This document shows, piece by piece, positions 1 through 10,710 of a stretch of 10,710 nt of DNA. The stretch lies in the IMG/VR virus record IMGVR_UViG_2778261453_000020; one strand, given 5' to 3'. How positions within the stretch are numbered: the first letter of the stretch is position 1; every line of letters begins with the position of its first letter. The translations under genes and the position numbers were made by a program. The notes beneath the pieces were generated by a model, which saw only the letters and a list, made by a program, of their open reading frames with translations, was not told the origin of the DNA and ran no database searches. The DNA is from a virus. Lineage: Duplodnaviria; Heunggongvirae; Uroviricota; Caudoviricetes.

Positions 1-291
1 AATGAAACACGCCAGTTCGCCCGGATGTTGGGACTTGAACCGAAGAACACGGCGGTGCGGAGTCCGGAGAGTAACGGAATAGCAGAGAGCTTCGTGAAAA
101 CGATAAAGCGTGACTACATCAGTATCATGCCCAAACCAGACGGGTTAACGGCAGCAAAGAACCTTGCAGAGGCGTTCGAGCATTATAACGAATGGCATCC
201 GCATAGTGCGCTGGGTTATCGCTCGCCACGGGAATATCTGCGGCAGCGGGCTTGTAATGGGTTAAGTGATAACAGATGTCTGGAAATATAG
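1..291 (+). CDS. insD: IS2 transposase OrfB/InsD, C-terminal fragment (5' end outside window)
   Basis: Same frame as track ORF 25-291 but open back to nt 1. Stop TAG at 289-291 lies inside the terminal inverted repeat. Sequence recognition from memory of IS3-family integrase-core C-termini. Confidence 0.7.
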
Positions 292-302
292 GGGCAAATC
301 CA
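1..302 (+). mobile_element. IS2 (IS3 family) right end, partial; the window begins inside the element
   Basis: The frame open from nt 1 translates to ...[40 protein letters not shown]...[29 protein letters not shown], which I recognise as the C-terminus of IS2 OrfB/InsD. The terminal sequence ...CAGATGTCTGGAAATATAGGGGCAAATCCA ending at 302 matches my recollection of the IS2 right inverted repeat. The exact end is from memory, not alignment. Confidence 0.7.
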
Positions 303-1910
303 AGTATCACGTATTCCTCTAAAGCCATCTCTGAAAATATGGTTATCAACAATGGCCGCGCTAATGTCTGGGCTGGCACAATGGTTAACGTGTCAGTCAG
401 AGGGAATGATGGCATTCTTGAGGTCATGAAGCCGCAAATAAATTATGCACCCGCTATGTTGGTGGGTAAGGTAGTGGTTTCTGAGGGCGCTTCTTTTAGA
501 ACGCATGGTGCCGTGGATACCAGCAAAGCGGACGTTTCGCTCGAAAATAGCGTATGGACCATCATTGCCGATATCACTACGACGAACCAAAACACCCTCC
601 TCAACTTAGCCAACCTTGCGATGTCTGACGCAAATGTGATTATGATGGATGAGCCAGTGACTCGTTCATCAGTGACGGCAAGTGCGGAAAATTTCATTAC
701 GTTGAACACCAATACCCTGTCGGGAAACGGCAATTTTTATATGCGTACCGATATGGCTAATCATCAGAGCGATCAGCTCAACGTCACCGGTCAGGCAACA
801 GGTGATTTCAAAATATTCGTGACGGACACCGGTGCCAGCCCGGCAGCAGGAGATAGCCTTACACTGGTAACAACGGGCGGCGGTGATGCTGCATTTACGT
901 TGGGCAATGCCGGAGGCGTTGTTGATATCGGTACGTATGAATATACCTTGCTGGATAATGGCAACCATAGCTGGAGTTTGGCAGAGAATCGCGCGCAAAT
1001 TACCCCTTCAACCACTGATGTGCTGAATATGGCGGCCGCACAACCGCTGGTATTTGATGCAGAACTGGACACCGTGCGTGAGCGTCTTGGTAGCGTAAAA
1101 GGCGTTAGTTACGATACGGCGATGTGGAGTTCGGCAATTAACACCCGCAACAACGTGACCACTGATGCGGGAGCTGGTTTTGAGCAAACATTGACGGGCC
1201 TGACGCTCGGTATCGATAGCCGTTTCTCCCGTGAAGAAAGCAGTACAATTCGCGGCTTGTTCTTTGGTTACTCTCATTCTGATATTGGTTTTGATCGCGG
1301 CGGAAAAGGTAATATCGATAGCTATACCCTGGGGGCTTATGCCGGTTGGGAGCATCAGAACGGTGCCTATGTTGATGGGGTGGTGAAAGTTGACCGTTTT
1401 GCCAACACCATCCATGGCAAGATGAGTAATGGGGCAACAGCGTTTGGCGATTACAATAGTAACGGCGCGGGTGCTCATGTTGAGAGCGGGTTCCGTTGGG
1501 TTGACGGATTGTGGAGTATTAGACCCTATCTGGCCTTTACCGGCTTTACCACAGATGGTCAGGACTACACGTTATCAAACGGCATGCGCGCTGATGTGGG
1601 AAATACCCGGATATTACGCGCTGAAGCGGGAACGGCGGTAAGCTATCACATGGACCTGCAAAATGGTACGACGCTGGAACCCTGGCTGAAAGCCGCCGTA
1701 CGTCAGGAATACGCCGATTCTAACCATGTGAAAGTTAATGACGATGGCAAATTTAATAATGATGTGGCTGGAACCCGTGGCGTTTATCAGGCTGGGATAA
1801 GGTCATCGTTTACCCCGACGTTAAGCGGTCATTTGTCAGTCAGCTATGGCAATGGCGCAGGGGTAGAATCGCCGTGGAATACTCAGGCGGGTGTGGTCTG
1901 GACGTTCTGA
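303..1910 (+). pseudogene. Type Va autotransporter adhesin, C-terminal passenger and beta-barrel portion; gene interrupted by IS2
   Basis: Track ORF 276-1910 has its ATG inside the IS2 end, so that start is an artefact. Translation is Gly/Thr/Asn/Ser-rich with repeated passenger-like segments and ends ...NTQAGVVWTF with a terminal aromatic residue, typical of autotransporter barrels. The 5' part of the gene must lie beyond the IS outside the window. Confidence 0.7.
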
Positions 1911-2002: not shown

Positions 2003-2228
2003 CTTGGGATTTTTGGCACGAGAGTAGTTTGATTTGTCGTGCAACTACATGATTTAAAATAATATTTCTGATTCAACCTTTAAGCCGTATAACCAAACGT
2101 ATAACTAAAATGATTTGCTGCAAAAATGTACAATTTAAAGCCGGATTTTCCCAGCGGTTTATGAAACTGCGAAAATTTCGTAGTTATCCCGATACGGGGA
2201 TCACCATATCGGGATTAATGCTATGAAA

Positions 2229-3314: not shown

Positions 3315-3803
3315 TCAGTGTTTTAAGCCTGTTGGTGGCTTAGGGATGGGGAACCGATTTGAGGAGACATTAGCGGCATTGAGTTTTTTAACCTCTTTTT
3401 TCCCAATGCTGCCGATCTTGCGGTGGGTGAACTGGGCCAGCTTAAACGCGGCATCTAAAGCCAGTTTTGGATCTGTGTCTATGTTGTCAGCCAGTATCCT
3501 GCCCATAGCTTTGATAGGGTCGGGCAAGCCGTTGTCCATCCGTTCTATGGTGCTGATTGATGCCCGTTCCGGTGTAACTTTTTCGGTAACTTTCTTTGTA
3601 ACTTTTTTCGGTTTTGTAACCTGAAAAGTTACATCAGGAGTTACAGCCTTAAGATACTTTTTCACCTCAGGCTCGTTGGATAGCTGCCAGCCTTTAACCC
3701 TTGCGGTCTTTTCGCTGTATCCCGCATGTATAGCGGCTTCCGTGGGATTTGCGCCCCTTGATAACGCATCAGCAAACCGCTTTTTTTTGGTCGTTAATGC
3801 CAT
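3315..3803 (-). CDS. Terminase small subunit (TerS), 162 aa
   Basis: Track ORF 3315-3941, but the N-terminal 46 residues are low-complexity read-through. Start placed at MALTTKKKRFADALSRGANPTEAAIHAGYSEKTARVKGWQLSNEPEVKKYL, which matches the N-terminal helix-turn-helix pattern of TerS proteins (AGYS.KTA...G..LL..P.V..YL). GAGG lies 7 nt upstream of this ATG. Confidence 0.6.
   Translation of the reverse strand: MALTTKKKRFADALSRGANPTEAAIHAGYSEKTARVKGWQLSNEPEVKKYLKAVTPDVTFQVTKPKKVTKKVTEKVTPERASISTIERMDNGLPDPIKAMGRILADNIDTDPKLALDAAFKLAQFTHRKIGSIGKKEVKKLNAANVSSNRFPIPKPPTGLKH
3574..3644. repeat. Six GTAAC pentamers at 12-bp periodicity inside terS (four direct, two inverted)
   Basis: GTAAC at 3574, 3586, 3598 and 3616, then GTTAC at 3628 and 3640. 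On the coding strand this spans the KVT-rich linker ...VTKPKKVTKKVTEKVTPE of TerS. Confidence 0.55.
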
Positions 3804-3930
3804 GCAAAAACCTCGTTTTGAGGGGGTGTAACTTTTCGTGTAACTTTTTTGAAAAGCAAAATTTTCTACGAATGAGACGGGGGGCGGTGTCCAGGGCGAT
3901 CGCCTTTCCGGCCGGAACACTCCCCCCCTG
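3804..3930 (-). promoter_or_regulatory. Candidate packaging site (cos/pac-like): GC-rich dyad plus two GTAAC repeats immediately upstream of terS
   Basis: 3877-3929 is an extended imperfect palindrome (ACGGGGGGCGGTGT ... ACACTCCCCCCC) enclosing the perfect palindromes GGCGATCGCC (3895-3904) and CCGGCCGG (3908-3915). Two further GTAAC copies sit 12 bp apart at 3828 and 3840, between the dyad and the terS ATG. The functional assignment is inference. Confidence 0.3.
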
Positions 3931-4092
3931 TCATTGCTCACCGAGTAACGAGATCAGGCCTTCAACTTCATCGCTCAGCTTGTTTATTCGTGTCTCAAGC
4001 TCTGCGATCTTTTCCATTAATGGCGCTATCGTGTCTCTTGTTTCCTCGCCAATGGCTTTAATGATGCTTGCCTCGCGTTCTGTGATAGCCAT
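3931..4092 (-). CDS. Small predicted helical protein, 53 aa
   Basis: Hand translation MAITEREASIIKAIGEETRDTIAPLMEKIAELETRINKLSDEVEGLISLLGEQ*. AGGA lies 6 nt upstream of the ATG, and the ATG is 2 nt after the stop of the upstream ORF. Not in the supplied track. Confidence 0.4.
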   Translation of the reverse strand: MAITEREASIIKAIGEETRDTIAPLMEKIAELETRINKLSDEVEGLISLLGEQ

Positions 4093-4416: not shown

Positions 4417-4827
4417 TTAAAACGGAATATCATCACCGTAGGGGTCATCGCCTCCCGCTGGTGGCTGATTACCCTGTGTGCCTGTGGTTTTGCGTCTGCT
4501 CCCGCCAGGACACGCCGTCTTCGCACTGATTACGCTGTCTGCGATAACCTGCCAGCCCTGCCGTGTTTCCCCGTTCTGTTCGGTCCACTGGCTGACCTGC
4601 ATCGTGCCGGATACGCTGGCAACGTCACCCTTTTGATGTTTAGCCAGGTAGTCGGCCTGCTTACCAAATGCGATGACCGATAGCCATAACGTCGCCTGTC
4701 CATCCTGTGCCTGGCTGCATGGCAACGATACCGCCATACGCGCCAGCGTCATTGGTGTACCCTTGCTGGTCTGTTTTACCTGCGGGTCAGCCACCAGCCG
4801 TCCGTAAGCCGCTATCTGTGCTGTCAT
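4417..4827 (-). CDS. ssb: Single-stranded DNA-binding protein (SSB-like), 136 aa
   Basis: OB-fold-like N-terminus (...LWLSVIAFGKQADYLAKHQKGDVASVSGTMQVSQWTEQNGETRQGW...), Gly/Pro-rich linker and the acidic tail ...GDDPYGDDIPF characteristic of bacterial and phage SSBs. Its ATG overlaps the upstream stop as ATGA. Confidence 0.65.
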   Translation of the reverse strand: MTAQIAAYGRLVADPQVKQTSKGTPMTLARMAVSLPCSQAQDGQATLWLSVIAFGKQADYLAKHQKGDVASVSGTMQVSQWTEQNGETRQGWQVIADSVISAKTACPGGSRRKTTGTQGNQPPAGGDDPYGDDIPF

Positions 4828-5075
4828 GCTGTCTGCTCTCCGGTTTTAACGTTGATGGTTGTTACCTGTTCCGCTTCGGCAATCTCCCGTTCTGTCAGCG
4901 TGGCAAAGTTTGCCGCCGCCGTTGTCATGAATGCGCTTATCAGTTCAGGATGTGTTTTCGCGTATCCTTCCCCGGCGTGGCGGTCTATCGTTCTGATTGC
5001 CACCTTTAAGGCGTGCTCTGTCATGTCTAATGCGCGATATTTTGGCGCTGTCTTATCTCTGGTTTTTCTGTTCAT
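4824..5075 (-). CDS. Hypothetical protein, 83 aa (alternative start at 5024 gives 66 aa)
   Basis: Track ORF with GGGAG 9 nt upstream of the ATG at 5075; its stop overlaps the ssb start. No recognisable family. Confidence 0.4.
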   Translation of the reverse strand: MNRKTRDKTAPKYRALDMTEHALKVAIRTIDRHAGEGYAKTHPELISAFMTTAAANFATLTEREIAEAEQVTTINVKTGEQTA

Positions 5076-5288
5076 TCCCCACTACTCCCCACTTTTGTTC
5101 CCCACTTTTTAAATTCCCCACTTGCTCCCCACGTCGTTTTTTTGGTGAATCTAATGCTTTGTTTTTCATTGCGTTTTTTACTCCCCACTTTTTTGGATGT
5201 ATACAGGTGGGAAAGTGGGGAATTATGTTTTTATTTTGTTAAATTCCCCACTATCCCCACTTTTATTACCCACTTTTTACAGTGGGTA
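5076..5288. repeat. Iteron-like array of octamer TCCCCACT (about 9 direct and 2-3 inverted copies); candidate replication origin
   Basis: Direct copies at 5076, 5086, 5099, 5115, 5126 (variant TCCCCACG), 5182, 5245, 5255 and 5267 (variant TACCCACT). Inverted AGTGGGGA at 5215, with degenerate inverted copies at 5205 and 5281. Spacings of 10-13 bp. An AT-rich tract at 5134-5180 separates two clusters. Confidence 0.6.
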
Positions 5289-6683
5289 AACATCATCCCC
5301 ATCGACACAAATCACGCCGTCTTTTTCCAGCTTGGACAGCCAGCGCCGGAAGTGCTTCATCTCATATCCCAGCTTTTTCATATCGTCGCGGAGAAGGGCG
5401 ATAGTGCATGGTTCTTTGTGTGCCGTCCGCGTTCTGATGCACTGCCATAGCGCCGCGTGATTCTCCGATTTGTTGCCTGCTTCCTCGATGCGCTCCAGTT
5501 CAGCAGGGGCGCGGGGAACGTCAATCACCACCATGGACACAATCTCTTCGCCATCTGTATCGGTGAACACCTCCACGCTTTTAAGGTCGTATGCACTTTC
5601 TTTTGGCTCCTCTGCGTCCTTCATCTTCGTGCATGCCGCCACCAGTGCTGTAACGTCTGAATTTTCCCGACTGATTCGGAACTCAGCATCAAGCGCCGCA
5701 CGGAATGCGCTGGAACCGCGCGCCCCTTTCGTCTCATCCTTGCCGGAATGGTGAACCACCAGCACGGTAGCCCCTGTTGCCTGCTTTATCGCGTCACATC
5801 CCTGGATAAATGCGCCCATGTCGCGGGAGTCATTTTCATCATGACCGCCAAAGCAACGGGCCAGCGTATCAATGACGATCATCCGCACCCGTTCGCCCGT
5901 TGTGCTCTGCACAAATCCGGCAGTCCTTATTACCTGTTCCACATAGTCCGGCGATGCGGGGAATACTGGCGAATTGACGATACACAAATCAGTAACCTCC
6001 TTACCGTGGGTTATTTCCCATGCCTTAACGCGGCGTTTTACGCCCATGCTGCCTTCACCAGCAACATAGATAACCGCGCCTTTACACACCCTTCGGCCTC
6101 CCCATTTCATGCCAGTAGCAACATGACACGCCCACGAAATGGCGAGGAACGATTTATAAGAACCGCTGGCTCCGTAGGTGCTGCATAATGACTCAGCCGG
6201 AATAAGCCCCTTAATTACGTAGCTTTGCTGCGCGTCGAATCCCTCAGACCCCCATGAGATGGGAAGTGTGATTTTTCGCTTTCCGCCATTCATGACCAGG
6301 CTTTCCCCACGTTCCCAGGTTTCTTTAAGCCGCGGTAGTTGCTCGCTCCAGTCCTCCAGCAATTCGAAATTTTCAGAAAGTAGCCGCGCCTCCTGGACTC
6401 CGGCGATCGCCAGTTTTGTGGCAATGGTCAGCATCTGCATATCGTCCAGATTTCCGGCACGTATGACCTTTGTCCTGTATCGTCCTTCATCAACAATCTG
6501 TAAGTTGTCCAGTTCGTTTAACTGATAACGGCCCAGGTAAACCGGAGGGATGGGATCGCCCGCTTTTTTGGCCTGCGCAATCATGTAATGTTCTGCAAAG
6601 GAGTGAGCATCATTCCCCGCGAAAATAATTGCTTCGGTGTGTTTGTCTTTCGGTAATAGTTTTACGTTCGGTGCCAGTTTCAT
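5277..6683 (-). CDS. RepA-like replicative helicase / replication initiator (RecA-fold ATPase), 468 aa
   Basis: P-loop-like YGASGSYKS, Walker-B-like RMIVIDTL, and ATVLVVHHSGKD, which is the HHxGK motif I associate with RepA/DnaB-like phage and plasmid helicases. The C-terminal approx. 70 aa look like a possible DNA-binding domain, and the gene ends inside the iteron array. Confidence 0.6.
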   Translation of the reverse strand: MKLAPNVKLLPKDKHTEAIIFAGNDAHSFAEHYMIAQAKKAGDPIPPVYLGRYQLNELDNLQIVDEGRYRTKVIRAGNLDDMQMLTIATKLAIAGVQEARLLSENFELLEDWSEQLPRLKETWERGESLVMNGGKRKITLPISWGSEGFDAQQSYVIKGLIPAESLCSTYGASGSYKSFLAISWACHVATGMKWGGRRVCKGAVIYVAGEGSMGVKRRVKAWEITHGKEVTDLCIVNSPVFPASPDYVEQVIRTAGFVQSTTGERVRMIVIDTLARCFGGHDENDSRDMGAFIQGCDAIKQATGATVLVVHHSGKDETKGARGSSAFRAALDAEFRISRENSDVTALVAACTKMKDAEEPKESAYDLKSVEVFTDTDGEEIVSMVVIDVPRAPAELERIEEAGNKSENHAALWQCIRTRTAHKEPCTIALLRDDMKKLGYEMKHFRRWLSKLEKDGVICVDGDDVYPL

Positions 6684-7215: not shown

Positions 7216-7435
7216 AAATTTTCTCCCTTATTCTTTTAATGTCCTCATTAAGGATGTCTGTAACTTTTATCAGCGAGTTTTTGGCAATTATTTTTATTGT
7301 TTTAAGTTTTCTTTTGTCGTGCTCCGACTGTGATTTTCTCTCCATAATCTCCACCATGTGGGTAACATCAACGAGCGCACGTATCAGTATTTGCATTGCT
7401 TCTTCTGCTGCGTCCGGACGGGTGTTATTGCACAT
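7205..7435 (-). CDS. Hypothetical protein, 76 aa
   Basis: Track ORF 7205-7465, trimmed to the ATG at 7435 (AGGGGG 6 nt upstream) because the longer form would overlap the Icd-like gene by 40 nt. The C-terminal half is encoded in an AT-rich stretch (about 7205-7330). Confidence 0.4.
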   Translation of the reverse strand: MCNNTRPDAAEEAMQILIRALVDVTHMVEIMERKSQSEHDKRKLKTIKIIAKNSLIKVTDILNEDIKRIREKICDA

Positions 7436-7598
7436 GGCACACCCCCTGACGAATACGGGCGACAAAAATCAGATGTGCGTGCGGCAGCTGCGCACGGGCT
7501 TCGCGCTCAGTGGCAGCGGTAACGGTGAAAATATCAATGTTGCTGTGGTGGCACTGCATAAAGCGCCAGACAAAGTAAGGGCGTGCGGATACAGCCAT
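7425..7598 (-). CDS. Icd-like (host cell-division inhibitor family) small protein, 57 aa
   Basis: MAVSARPYFVWRFMQCHHSNIDIFTVTAATEREARAQLPHAHLIFVARIRQGVCHVQ*, with GGGAG 8 nt upstream of the ATG. Paralogous to the 7885-8082 ORF (shared FVWRF, TEREAR, ARIRQG). The Icd-like assignment is from memory of P1/P4-type family patterns. Confidence 0.5.
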   Translation of the reverse strand: MAVSARPYFVWRFMQCHHSNIDIFTVTAATEREARAQLPHAHLIFVARIRQGVCHVQ

Positions 7599-7762
7599 GT
7601 GAAAGGCTCCCAGATGAATTATAAGGAGTCTCGCTACTACGCTGCTAAACGGGGTGGCGAGACGTAACAGGGTTAGCAGACTGGTCATCTGGAAACCAGC
7701 GAGCGCAAAGGCTCCCCCGTTACGCCCCGCCATAATGCGGGTATGGGTAGGTTTACGGACAC

Positions 7763-7884
7763 AAAAAAACCGCTTATCGGATGTGGGCGGCTGTCCGCCA
7801 GATGTATTCAGGCTGCTAAACCCGGTCGCCATGTGGGCGACGGGGGAAGCATACAGCCCCGTGATAATTTTTTGCAAGCGGTTT
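7763..7884 (-). ncRNA. Candidate structured RNA (multi-stem, cloverleaf-like) ending in a U7 tract, between the two Icd-like genes
   Basis: On the minus strand, AAAAACCGCUU (7884-7874) can pair with AAGCGGUUUUU (7775-7765). This encloses hairpins GGGG/CCCC, GUCGCC-CACAU-GGCGAC and GGCGG-ACAG-CCGCC. Folds were judged by eye only. Confidence 0.25.
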
Positions 7885-8082
7885 TTACGCATGATGTGAC
7901 CCCTGACGAATACGGGCGGCGAATACAGCAACACAACCTGACGGGCAACGGTTACGCGCTTCGCGTTCCGTCCAGGCGGTTACGTGGATGATTTGAGATT
8001 CTCCGGCACTCAGGGCCAGAAAACGCCACACAAAGGCCGTTTGTGTGTGTACAAGGTGTGGTATATGATTTACGGCAACCAT
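7885..8082 (-). CDS. Icd-like small protein, 65 aa
   Basis: MVAVNHIPHLVHTQTAFVWRFLALSAGESQIIHVTAWTEREARNRCPSGCVAVFAARIRQGSHHA*, with AGGAG 5 nt upstream of the ATG. The track shows this as the 3' end of a 288-aa ORF, which I reject. Confidence 0.5.
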   Translation of the reverse strand: MVAVNHIPHLVHTQTAFVWRFLALSAGESQIIHVTAWTEREARNRCPSGCVAVFAARIRQGSHHA

Positions 8083-8170
8083 AACGGCTCCTAGTTTACG
8101 TTGTTGGTTAGACGCCCCGTATGTGTTCCCAGCACTGCGGGGCGTTGATTTTTGTGTAATGGCAAGTACA

Positions 8171-8219
8171 ATGGTAATTACCATGTAGGTATAGTAATGA
8201 AGGGTAATTACCATGTCAA
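8171..8219 (-). promoter_or_regulatory. Sigma70-like promoter (TTGACA-17-TACTAT) for the icd/replication operon with two palindromic operators
   Basis: Minus-strand -35 TTGACA (8219-8214), 17-nt spacer, -10 TACTAT (8196-8191). Perfect palindrome GGTAATTACC at 8203-8212 sits in the spacer. ATGGTAATTACCAT at 8171-8184 sits at about +1 to +14. Confidence 0.5.
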
Positions 8220-8386
8220 CACCATTAGAAAAACGTTCGCCTCCATACCAAATGCGATTACCGGAAGACTTCAGAGCGCAGCTAGAAGAAGCAGCTAAGG
8301 CCGATGGCGACACATCTTTAGCCACTTGGATTAAACGCGTTCTCCGCAAAGAATTACAGCAACGCGGCATAGAACCCAAAGGATAA
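8213..8386 (+). CDS. Ribbon-helix-helix (Arc/MetJ-like) DNA-binding protein, 57 aa; candidate repressor
   Basis: Hand translation MSTPLEKRSPPYQMRLPEDFRAQLEEAAKADGDTSLATWIKRVLRKELQQRGIEPKG*. YQMRLPEDFRAQLEEAAKADG...SLATWIKRVL fits the beta-strand/helix/helix pattern of Arc-type repressors. It is divergent from the operator-bearing promoter. Not in the supplied track; its own promoter was not identified. Confidence 0.55.
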   Translation: MSTPLEKRSPPYQMRLPEDFRAQLEEAAKADGDTSLATWIKRVLRKELQQRGIEPKG

Positions 8387-8443
8387 AAACTATCAGCGCC
8401 GTGGTGTGAGGTATTACGGCGCATTGCTATGCAGGACAACACA

Positions 8444-8617
8444 ATGACCGATAAAGAATTGACCAAAACATTATCACCGGCACGGAAAAGACGGCGCAGA
8501 AAGATAGAGCATGAATCAGAAAGATTCGCGCCATGTGCTTTTGCCCTTGAGCAATTCCTTAAAGAGTATAGGGAAAAGCGCTCATTGCAGGTATGGCAAC
8601 GAACTGAACCAGACTGA
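8444..8617 (+). CDS. Possible small basic protein with arginine-rich motif, 57 aa
   Basis: In-frame part of track ORF 8429-8617; AGGA lies 7 nt upstream of the ATG at 8444. Contains ARKRRRRK. It sits between the RHH gene and the terminator at 8712-8739. Coding status is uncertain. Confidence 0.25.
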   Translation: MTDKELTKTLSPARKRRRRKIEHESERFAPCAFALEQFLKEYREKRSLQVWQRTEPD

Positions 8618-8711
8618 TTGCATTGCCCACCAGCCTGATAGCGGCTATCATCCCCGTGCTTATTTTTGGGATCACATACACATAAGGCGCAGCGGGTTAA
8701 TTGTTCAGAAA

Positions 8712-8739
8712 GGCGGCTCCATATCGGGGCCGCTTTTTT
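8712..8739 (+). terminator. Rho-independent terminator
   Basis: GCGGCUCC-AUAUC-GGGGCCGC (8-bp stem with one G-U pair) followed by U6 at 8734-8739. The reverse-strand hairpin has a mismatch and a poor U-tract. Confidence 0.65.
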
Positions 8740-8765
8740 CGTGTTTGTCATATCTGTGATACCCG

Positions 8766-8972
8766 TTAAGCAGCCGTTCCGCGTGCTTCCTGTTCGCGTT
8801 CTTTCTGCCAGGCCAACACATCATCCTCATACCATCCGCGACGGCGTAAACCAACGCGAAAACCCTGCGGAAATTCTCCGGCGTTGATCATGCTTTGCAG
8901 CGTGCTGTCTGCCTTGATGTGGATAATTTTTTTTACTTCCTGGCGAAAGATAATTTTTCTGATTGCTTCCAT
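8766..8972 (-). CDS. alpA: AlpA-family (phage Vis/AlpA-type) DNA-binding regulator, 68 aa
   Basis: ...KIIHIKADSTLQSMINAGEFPQGFRVGLRRRGWYEDDVLAWQKERE... matches the AlpA helix-turn-helix pattern. It lies next to a P4-type integrase, as is usual for such islands. Confidence 0.7.
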   Translation of the reverse strand: MEAIRKIIFRQEVKKIIHIKADSTLQSMINAGEFPQGFRVGLRRRGWYEDDVLAWQKEREQEARGTAA

Positions 8973-9468: not shown

Positions 9469-10710
9469 CTACACGGCTCGGATACCCCTTTTACCACTGG
9501 CGAGGGTTACGCCCGTCGCCGCAGCCTCGACAAATTCGCCCCACCAGCGCATCAGCACGATGCGTTTTTCTATGTAGTTGCTCCGGTTGTATGCCCGTCT
9601 AACTTCGTTGGTGTCGACGTGGGCAAGTGCCGCCTCTATTACGTCCGGCTCGAATCCTTCCTCGTTCGCTGCTGTGCTGAATATGGCGCGTAATCCATGA
9701 GACACCAGCACGCCAGCAAATCCCATACGCCGCAATGCTGCGTTAGCTGTCTGGCTGTTCATCGGCTGCTGTGGGTCTTTCAGGCTTGGGAAAACGTAAT
9801 TGCGGTGGTGGCTGATTGGTTTCATGGCCTCCAGCACCGCCATAGCCTGACCGGAAAGCGGGATAACGTGATCCCTGCGCATCTTCATGCGTCCGGCAGG
9901 TATCGTCCATTGCTTCGCGTCCAGGTTGATTTCATCCCACCGCGTTGATGACGCTTCGGCGGGACGGGTTACGGTCAGTAACTGCCATTCAATCAGTAAT
10001 CTGGTCTGCCGTTCTGTTGCCGATACTGATAAAGCCTGCATAAGCTCCGGCAGCTGTTCGGGGCGGATTGTTGGCATATGTTTTTTTACAGGTGAGGGAA
10101 ACGCCTTACGCACATTCATAGCCGGATTGGCATCAATCAGCCCACTGTTGGCGGCGTAATCCATTACCTCATTAACGCGCTGTAAAACCCGCTTGAGTGT
10201 TTCCAGGTTGCCGCGCTCCTTGATGGGTGTAAGCACCTCAACGAATCTTCGGGCGGTGAGGGTATCTATTGGCGTGTTGCCGATGAACGGGAATACATAT
10301 TTATCCAGCGAACGCCAGATGTCTTTAATCGTGTTGGGGGCCAGATTCTGGCTGATTTTCACCTGGTACCATGCCGCCGCCACATTTTCGAACGTGTTCC
10401 CTTGTCTTCGGGCCTCTGTCTCTCTTTTTTGCCTCTCGTGGTCCTGCGGGTCAGTTCCGGCACGAATTAACGCCCTGTACTCGCTACGGCGTTTTCTGGC
10501 ATCAGCCAGGGAAACATCTTCAAGCGATCCAAAACTCAGCAATATTCTTTTTTTGTCCGATGGTCGGTAGTAGGAAAATCTCCAGAGTTTTGATCCAGAC
10601 GGTTTGACCAGGAGAAAAAGCCCTCCGCCGTCCTGCAGGGTGTACTCCTTTTGCGCTGGTCTGGCTGCTTTGATCTGCACTGTGGTTAATGGGTGTGTTT
10701 TTCTCGCCAT
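9469..10710 (-). CDS. P4-type tyrosine integrase, 413 aa
   Basis: N-terminal ...GLFLLVKPSGSKLWRFSYYRP... arm-binding-like domain. Catalytic-core motifs: R in ...TVTRPAEAS..., HGLRAIF (H-x-x-R), and ...ALAHVDTNEVRRAYNRSNYIEKR with the likely catalytic Tyr. The ATG is the final base of the window, so the promoter and attachment site are outside it. Confidence 0.85.
   Translation of the reverse strand: MARKTHPLTTVQIKAARPAQKEYTLQDGGGLFLLVKPSGSKLWRFSYYRPSDKKRILLSFGSLEDVSLADARKRRSEYRALIRAGTDPQDHERQKRETEARRQGNTFENVAAAWYQVKISQNLAPNTIKDIWRSLDKYVFPFIGNTPIDTLTARRFVEVLTPIKERGNLETLKRVLQRVNEVMDYAANSGLIDANPAMNVRKAFPSPVKKHMPTIRPEQLPELMQALSVSATERQTRLLIEWQLLTVTRPAEASSTRWDEINLDAKQWTIPAGRMKMRRDHVIPLSGQAMAVLEAMKPISHHRNYVFPSLKDPQQPMNSQTANAALRRMGFAGVLVSHGLRAIFSTAANEEGFEPDVIEAALAHVDTNEVRRAYNRSNYIEKRIVLMRWWGEFVEAAATGVTLASGKRGIRAV

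Follow-up and report, generated by a model that had tools for sequence, protein, structure and literature searches.

The replication origins of SaPIs and of phage-inducible chromosomal islands (PICIs) follow a common rule, according to which 6–12 short iterons are located directly 3' of the rep gene, in opposite orientations and with an AT-rich centre (Qiao 2022, PMC9371898). In SaPIs, these iterons are read by the C-terminal winged helix of the Rep protein, for which a function as self-loading initiator-helicase has been proposed (Qiao 2022, PMC9371898). Functional evidence is available for the PICI EcCICFT073: a plasmid carrying its rep and ori formed colonies at the restrictive temperature, a rep mutant formed none, and deletion of ori significantly reduced colony numbers (PMC6092414). 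The same work compares PICIs with P4 and includes EcCI11368.1, a PICI that occupies the att site of the island studied here (Fillol-Salom 2018, PMC6092414). This island is contained in a viral DNA stretch of 10,710 nucleotides, hereafter the window, in which an array of short repeats (5076–5288, minus strand) follows the gene of a 468-aa RepA-like helicase and was put forward as a candidate origin in an initial annotation. Our analysis upholds that proposal: the array is very probably the replication origin of a Gram-negative PICI, with the adjacent 468-aa protein as its initiator and replicative helicase. This reading is based on the array itself, its conserved position, the covariation of the repeats with the helicase C-terminus, a winged helix predicted in that C-terminus and synteny with the validated PICI rep-ori, and it is from these that we infer binding, melting, self-loading and the replication function.

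Judged by its sequence, the window represents a Gram-negative PICI, a phage satellite, at the yejM/proL–yejO att site. All island ORFs are on the minus strand, in the order integrase, AlpA-like helix-turn-helix gene, C4 RNA and Icd-like ORFs, DUF4222, helicase, array, 83-aa ORF, SSB, terS, capsid-family gene and att core, after which comes yejO. The integrase identified in the gene-content search is a P4-like tyrosine integrase (9469–10710, minus strand). The 68-aa ORF at 8766–8972 has a weak Phage_AlpA match (17.6 bits, under the cut-off of 21), and the equivalent ORF of EcCI11368.1 has been annotated as a helix-turn-helix regulator. Beyond the array, the 83-aa ORF (4824–5075, minus strand; phrog_1231, function unknown) starts right after the last iteron and is followed by the SSB gene (4417–4827, minus strand; Pfam SSB, E=2e-16), which is syntenic in relatives and apparently part of the replication module, and by the gene of a small terminase, a TerS homologue (3315–3941, minus strand). 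The att core TTTTAGTTATACGTTTGGTTATACGG (2085–2110, minus strand) agrees with the core published for the PICIs located at yejM-aidA/luxR (Fillol-Salom 2018, PMC6092414). It marks the end of the island, about 120 bp past the capsid-family gene, and adjoins the chromosomal autotransporter gene yejO (276–1910, plus strand). From att (2085) to the end of the window that carries int, the island measures at least 8.6 kb, and TerS and the capsid-family protein are the only virion-related products encoded in the window. An integrase at one end, a specific att site that prophages do not use and a small size (about 8–12 kb) without tail or lysis genes are all features of a PICI. As for the region between integrase and DUF4222, a C4 antisense RNA is located at 7650–7737 on the minus strand (Rfam, 71.6 bits, E=9.5e-13), and the ORFs 7425–7934 and 7885–8751, downstream of this RNA, have Icd-like C-termini (both ...ERE AR...ARIRQG), which together suggest a P1/P4-style antisense-RNA immunity or icd module in the island.

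Two published islands are particularly informative for comparison. EcCI11368.1 has the gene order of the window, a helicase 65% identical overall that contains the C-terminal motif MKHFRRWL, and GTGGGG repeats in a 201-bp gap, as in the window. EcCICFT073 shows a similar order, namely DUF4222, Pri-Rep, a 288-bp gap, an 85-aa ORF that is 84% identical to the 83-aa ORF, SSB and PerC. Its iterons, located in the 288-bp gap after pri-rep, are GGTAGA/TCTACC, whereas those of the window are AGTGGGGA, and its initiator has a D5_N/DUF5906/Pox_D5 core (SF3-type) in place of the AAA_25 RecA-fold core found here. Since the cores differ and the N-terminal 130 aa of the two initiators are nevertheless 47% identical, these islands carry alternative initiator-origin cassettes at one fixed PICI position. 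The iterons and AT-rich layout of the array correspond to the PICI origin description of Fillol-Salom 2018 (PMC6092414). The layout is also that of SaPI origins, with 12 copies (9 + 3) in both orientations and two AT tracts directly after the helicase gene. Within the literature searched, no characterised RepA-type PICI initiator with AGTGGGGA iterons was found, although these iterons may be among those drawn in Figure 2a of PMC6092414.

Between the helicase stop codon (5277–5279) and the next ATG (5075), a gap of 201 bp is packed with GTGGG/CCCAC cores, of which there are 12 copies, nine direct and three inverted, in agreement with the nine direct and two to three inverted copies initially annotated. 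The limits also hold as first described, from the last helicase codons to the next ORF: the outermost copy (5281–5288) lies within the helicase end Y-P-L-stop, and the other limit is the base preceding the ATG of the 83-aa ORF. Exact TCCCCACT occurs eight times in the 10.7-kb window, always within 5076–5261 (seven on the plus and one on the minus strand); the mean in shuffled sequences is 0.18 and none of 200 shuffles gave eight. Copies with one mismatch add those at 5126 (plus), 5267 (plus) and 5281 (minus), and a degenerate inverted copy with two mismatches is found at 5205–5212. Because the genes of the region are all on the minus strand, the repeat unit is best read in gene sense as (A)AGTGGGGA, 8–9 bp long. 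Successive copies start 10, 13, 16 and 11 bp apart in one iteron set, and 9 and 13 bp apart in the second, so that the helical-turn spacing suggested earlier fits only loosely (9–16 bp overall). The AT-rich tract of the initial annotation turned out to be two tracts, at 5134–5181 and 5222–5244, with 70.8% and 91% AT against 51% for the whole window.

Read in gene sense, the array begins with an inverted iteron with one mismatch over the stop codon, inside the last helicase codons (5281–5288, plus strand). This copy forms a 9-bp perfect inverted repeat spanning the stop codon with the copy at 5267–5274, the latter being the first of the three direct iterons of the proximal set (5245–5274, minus strand: 5245–5252, 5254–5261 and 5267–5274, the last with one mismatch). 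Next comes the shorter AT tract (5222–5244, 23 bp), which has convergent iterons on either side and is among the four least stable 25-bp duplex windows of the 10.7 kb. It is followed by two inverted iterons (5205–5221, plus strand), one exact (AGTGGGGA, 5214–5221) and the degenerate one (AGGTGGGA, 5205–5212), by a palindrome reading TGTATACA in this sense, and by a lone direct iteron (5182–5189, minus strand) that together with the inverted copies flanks the palindrome. The longer AT-rich spacer (5134–5181, 48 bp), a candidate DNA-unwinding region, then separates these elements from the distal set of five direct AGTGGGGA iterons, read on the minus strand (5076–5133: 5076–5083, 5086–5093, 5099–5106, 5115–5122 and 5126–5133, the last with one mismatch). 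The palindromic element between the divergent iterons (5198–5207; TGTATACAGG, or CCTGTATACA on the minus strand) is found in the form CCTGTATA(C/T)A in 29 of 89 related origins belonging to all four iteron classes (including L001, L037, L043 and L081), 52–105 bp past the stop codon, the background frequency being 0.008 per 260 bp. We regard it as a core element that does not depend on the iteron sequence, and possibly as the nucleation or melting centre. The last two iterons (5076–5095, AGTGGGGAGTAGTGGGGA-ATG in gene sense) form the sole purine-rich stretch upstream of the start of the 83-aa ORF, so that a bound initiator might influence how the genes downstream are translated as well.

Scans for other elements returned little. 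Neither a DnaA box (with up to one mismatch) nor GATC occurs in the array, Rfam has no match in it, and the search for IHF sites gave a single IHF-like site with one mismatch, at 5152. No sigma-70 promoter or terminator was found between 4900 and 5450. A second repeat cluster was sought throughout the 10.7-kb window, which covers the island from its att core to the integrase gene, and none was detected, one-mismatch matches elsewhere being isolated singletons.

The protein encoded next to the array (468 aa; 5277–6683, minus strand), defined by its ORF and by Pfam and structure matches, consists of an N-terminal domain (aa 1–130), a RecA-fold AAA_25/RepA-like ATPase core (aa 146–395) and a C-terminal winged helix (aa 396–468). 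Its initial description as a RepA-like helicase is borne out by the Pfam match to AAA_25 (E=3e-43) and by RSF1010 RepA (PDB 1g8y, E=2e-4, residues 155–320) as the closest solved relative of the core. Throughout the helicase family the core motifs, including the Walker A-like GASGSYKS, do not vary. In the full-length model the core is poor, with pLDDT <50 at residues 314–396, which explains why Foldseek gave only weak matches to RecA, RadA, T7 gp4 and KaiC with this model; nothing was retrieved with it for the N- or C-terminal domains. The AF2 model of residues 396–468 alone is considerably better (pLDDT 88, pTM 0.76) and shows three helices followed by a beta-hairpin. All its top Foldseek matches are winged-helix DNA-binding domains, including those of HrcA, the IclR-type PcaR, DtxR/IdeR, LexA, MCM8 and MCM4 (TM 0.6–0.7, probability up to 0.98), with E-values of 0.08–0.5 that are weak as expected for a domain of only 73 residues; Pfam on the C-terminal 69 aa likewise gives winged-helix matches, all of them sub-threshold. 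This C-terminal region (5280–5498, minus strand) is thus predicted to be a winged-helix domain and is proposed to be the iteron reader. The third helix of a winged helix is usually the recognition helix. In the C-terminal model this helix comprises residues 445–454 and is immediately preceded by His444 (codon at 5352–5354, minus strand), the proposed specificity residue, within the motif M-K-H-F-R-R-W-L.

The N-terminal domain (6294–6683, aa 1–130, minus strand) is modelled as an alpha/beta fold with pLDDT 80–94. Its 130 aa have no functional Pfam or PHROGs match, the sole PHROGs match being phrog_2850, of unknown function. In records of the plasmid collection the domain also occurs as a fusion with DUF927, DUF5906 and P4-family primase proteins. 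It looks like a module common to satellite initiators, which might act as a primase or recruit a host factor. No primase was identified in the island.

The helicase-repeat region is widespread: of 5426 complete E. coli genomes, 1576 match it by megablast, and it is also present in a capsid-forming island that encodes a complete set of head and terminase genes. Its conservation was analysed in 88 loci with a helicase homologue and a readable downstream region, taken from one-genome-per-species Enterobacterales contigs, public assemblies and RefSeq. In 83 of these loci, a single dominant core is represented four times or more within 275 bp past the stop codon, and in 81 of the 88 this interval is the densest core window of the locus (median 8 versus 2). 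The initial annotation had named absence of the repeats from homologous elements as the observation that would speak against an origin; instead, the repeats are found at the same position in 81–83 of the 88 loci. Among the exceptions, L024, L078 and L063 appear to be decayed, their helicase ORFs being truncated or abnormal, and L005, L018 and L069 have degenerate TGAGGA-type iterons. The gene after the array varies (83-aa ORF, 257-aa ORF or ProQ) and the array persists; in L082, L089 and L092, the 83-aa ORF is missing and the iterons are still there. The 48-bp spacer is 71–79% AT in all ten aligned relatives with a drifting sequence, and the AT content of the 23-bp tract varies between 52 and 91%, so AT-richness of the latter is not kept.

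Several of the relatives show particularities of their own. In the E. coli N-type islands (the type being given by helicase residue 444, see below) L082 (3899–4308), L089 (3914–4391) and L092 (3917–4327), the gap after the helicase gene is 410–478 bp long and holds a second GTGAG iteron group and a further AT-rich stretch, by which it would represent an extended or duplicated origin. The Xenorhabdus loci L005, L018 and L069 encode a homologous helicase ORF of 710–729 aa, and in most Xenorhabdus loci (L003–L021, L069 and others) the tblastn match starts only at query residue 122–136. A larger and different N-terminal region thus apparently replaces the 130-aa domain in Xenorhabdus, with the winged helix and the iterons retained. 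Moreover, some single Xenorhabdus genomes contain two or three N-type loci with identical GTGAGGAA iterons (L006/L012, L013/L019/L075, L015/L016 and L007/L010), which makes the coexistence of islands with the same origin specificity a puzzle. The locus L095 corresponds to pKp_Goe_795-4 of K. pneumoniae (CP018459.1), a circular record of 16,971 bp deposited as a plasmid. It carries int, an AlpA-like gene, the helicase, capsid, head-tail adaptor and terminases, as in a capsid-forming PICI-like island, and combines an S-type helicase (RKSFPRWL) with (A/G)TGCGGCA iterons in the layout of the window. L095 may be an episomal satellite; its circular record is compatible with episomal replication and is not proof of it.

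Array and helicase are further linked by the way in which both vary, which the initial annotation had suggested examining. Across 71 unique C-termini, the column of residue 444 (motif K-x-F-x-R-W-L) is the sole fully informative one among the last 80 alignment columns (1.356 of 1.356 bits). His at this position goes with GTGGGG iterons (13 unique C-termini), Asn with GTGAGG (28), Lys with GTGGGGG (23) and Ser with TGCGGC (7). Residue 444 changed at least seven times on a neighbour-joining tree made without that column, a count that is rough because the domain is short. A particularly close comparison is provided by E. coli L089 (Asn), which differs from L090, L091 and L094 (His) at 3–4 positions in the last 62 aa, H444N being the sole difference shared by all three comparisons. 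At every aligned position, the inverted copy included, L089 has GTGAGG iterons where the others have GTGGGG, and in N-type relatives the inverted copy changes in register from CCCCAC to CCTCAC. Asn-adenine and His/Lys-guanine pairings fit common protein-DNA recognition preferences. We propose that His444 recognises the fourth base of GTGGGG; one amino acid appears to set which repeat is recognised.

Other candidates for the specificity partner of the iterons were considered and rejected. P0036 and P0047 have ATPase cores that are 98% identical and N-domains that are 82% identical and yet carry different iterons, so that the core does not set specificity. The helicase N-domain does not track the repeats, as it is shared with EcCICFT073, whose iterons are unrelated, and variants of DUF4222 do not follow the iteron type. 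The 83-aa ORF is absent from three iteron-bearing loci, and its 84% identical homologue in EcCICFT073 follows entirely different iterons. Since the iterons track the C-terminus and none of these four, the specificity partner is, on the evidence of covariation, the helicase C-terminal domain. Covariation of this kind is a sign of co-inheritance and co-adaptation, not of binding as such. It agrees with the earlier expectation that a repeat unlike the P4 octamer (as given in the initial annotation) implies a different initiator specificity, given that the repeat TCCCCACT/AGTGGGGA varies together with the helicase C-terminus.

These observations also bear on other functions that the array could have. 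Plasmid iterons often also autoregulate, and with the final iteron directly adjoining the ATG (5075), a protein bound there would occlude the ribosome-binding region. That the repeats mainly serve as an operator controlling the operon of the 83-aa ORF and SSB, or limit copy number, rather than initiate replication, is nonetheless very unlikely: the interval 4900–5450 lacks a promoter-like site, the array is maintained in front of different downstream genes, neither DUF4222 nor the 83-aa ORF tracks the iteron type, and an AT-rich spacer between opposed iterons is a feature of origins. A regulatory function could coexist with origin function as a secondary role.

The position of the repeats just downstream of the initiator gene had led the initial annotation to liken them to crr of P4, in which case the array would be auxiliary to an ori at another site of the element. 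The alpha protein of P4 combines a primase with an SF3 helicase, and P4 needs two repeat regions, ori and crr, in cis. The likeness is real in that P4 is an enterobacterial phage satellite with an integrase resembling that of the window and with octamer repeats that are bound by a multifunctional initiator-helicase and lie downstream of its gene. In contrast, Pfam gives only AAA_25 for the window helicase, whose RecA fold is not the alpha-type D5/Toprim primase-helicase architecture, the repeat TCCCCACT/AGTGGGGA is unlike the P4 octamer as given in the initial annotation, and the part of the island within the window has a single cluster, which is self-contained, with its own AT-rich spacer and iterons in both orientations. 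The single cluster, the different helicase class and the self-contained layout leave a crr-type role with scant probability; the comparison with P4 stands as an analogy, and the PICI/SaPI origin is the closer relative.

A function in packaging is more improbable still. The island encodes a TerS homologue (the small terminase at 3315–3941), and short repeated boxes make up some pac sites, so that the array might be conceived as the pac site recognised by this protein. The helicase-iteron module, however, accompanies unrelated packaging genes in other loci, e.g., a P27-family TerS with TerL in L001, a lambda-type Phage_cap_E capsid in L084–L086 and Clp-protease/capsid fusions in L087 and L090, and its iteron sequence follows helicase residue 444 instead of the packaging genes; on both grounds a pac site is not expected here. 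Finally, that the array is functionless low-complexity sequence arisen by chance, to which the T-rich plus strand of the intergenic region might lend some colour, has a negligible probability in view of the shuffling result and of an array whose register is maintained between species and whose bases change in concert.

The array is thus best considered as a PICI origin, and its initiator differs from those of several other well-known replicons. RSF1010 RepA has no DNA-recognition domain and needs the separate iteron-binding initiator RepC and the primase RepB', whereas the window helicase has a predicted winged helix fused to its motor. In the iteron plasmids pPS10, F, R6K and RK2, direct repeats next to an AT-rich region are recognised by a winged-helix initiator of the Rep_3 type. 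The iterons of these plasmids are 17–22 bp long, the initiator lacks a helicase, and DnaA boxes and loading of the host DnaB are involved; in the window the repeats are 8–9 bp long, there is no DnaA box and the initiator carries a helicase core. The SaPI Reps share with the window helicase a C-terminal winged-helix reader, which is predicted here and for which the covariation supports a function in recognition. They are AAA+ proteins of Gram-positive elements that have no sequence relationship to the window helicase, the motor of which is not of the AAA+ type.

A working model can be obtained by carrying the SaPI Rep scheme over to a RecA-fold motor. In this model, helicase subunits would use their winged-helix domains to bind the 8–9-bp (A)AGTGGGGA iterons, which form mixed-orientation sets around the AT-rich spacer, and the subunits clustered in this way would form ring helicases by means of the RecA-fold ATPase core. 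These rings would open the AT-rich DNA and self-load without DnaA, and the opened strands would be coated and stabilised by the island SSB encoded just downstream. As the site of opening we favour, with low confidence, the 48-bp spacer (5134–5181) as the conserved unwinding region. The 23-bp tract of 91% AT is the less favoured melting site: it is locally the least stable duplex, but its AT-richness is not kept in relatives. To our knowledge, all characterised self-loading initiators (SaPI Rep, P4 alpha, SV40 LTag and papillomavirus E1) use AAA+ motors. Self-loading is here an extrapolation across helicase classes, because the SaPI Reps are AAA+ (SF3/MCM-like) proteins and the core of the window helicase is RecA-fold. 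Whether the protein is an initiator-helicase that loads itself and has a RecA-fold (SF4-like, RepA-type) motor, with an origin specificity residing largely in one residue (His or Lys reading G, Asn reading A and Ser reading C), is thus a tentative proposal that we consider plausible without leaning towards it.

Since the origin architecture of PICIs has already been described, this work refines existing knowledge and does not define a new kind of system. Architecture and island family are both published; what is added here is the covariation at the level of a single residue and a RecA-fold motor instead of an AAA+ one. A putative origin and its proposed reader have been identified in a phage satellite family that is very common in E. 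coli and other Enterobacterales. PICIs swap whole initiator-origin cassettes at one position, placing a RepA-type or a D5-type helicase behind a common N-terminal domain. The correspondence between H444N and the G-to-A change in the iterons offers a precise and cheap handle on the evolution of origin specificity. If the one-residue reading is true, a single substitution (H444N) would retarget the replicon to GTGAGG iterons, which would explain the diversification of these satellites into compatible replicons and give a simple orthogonal set of origins.
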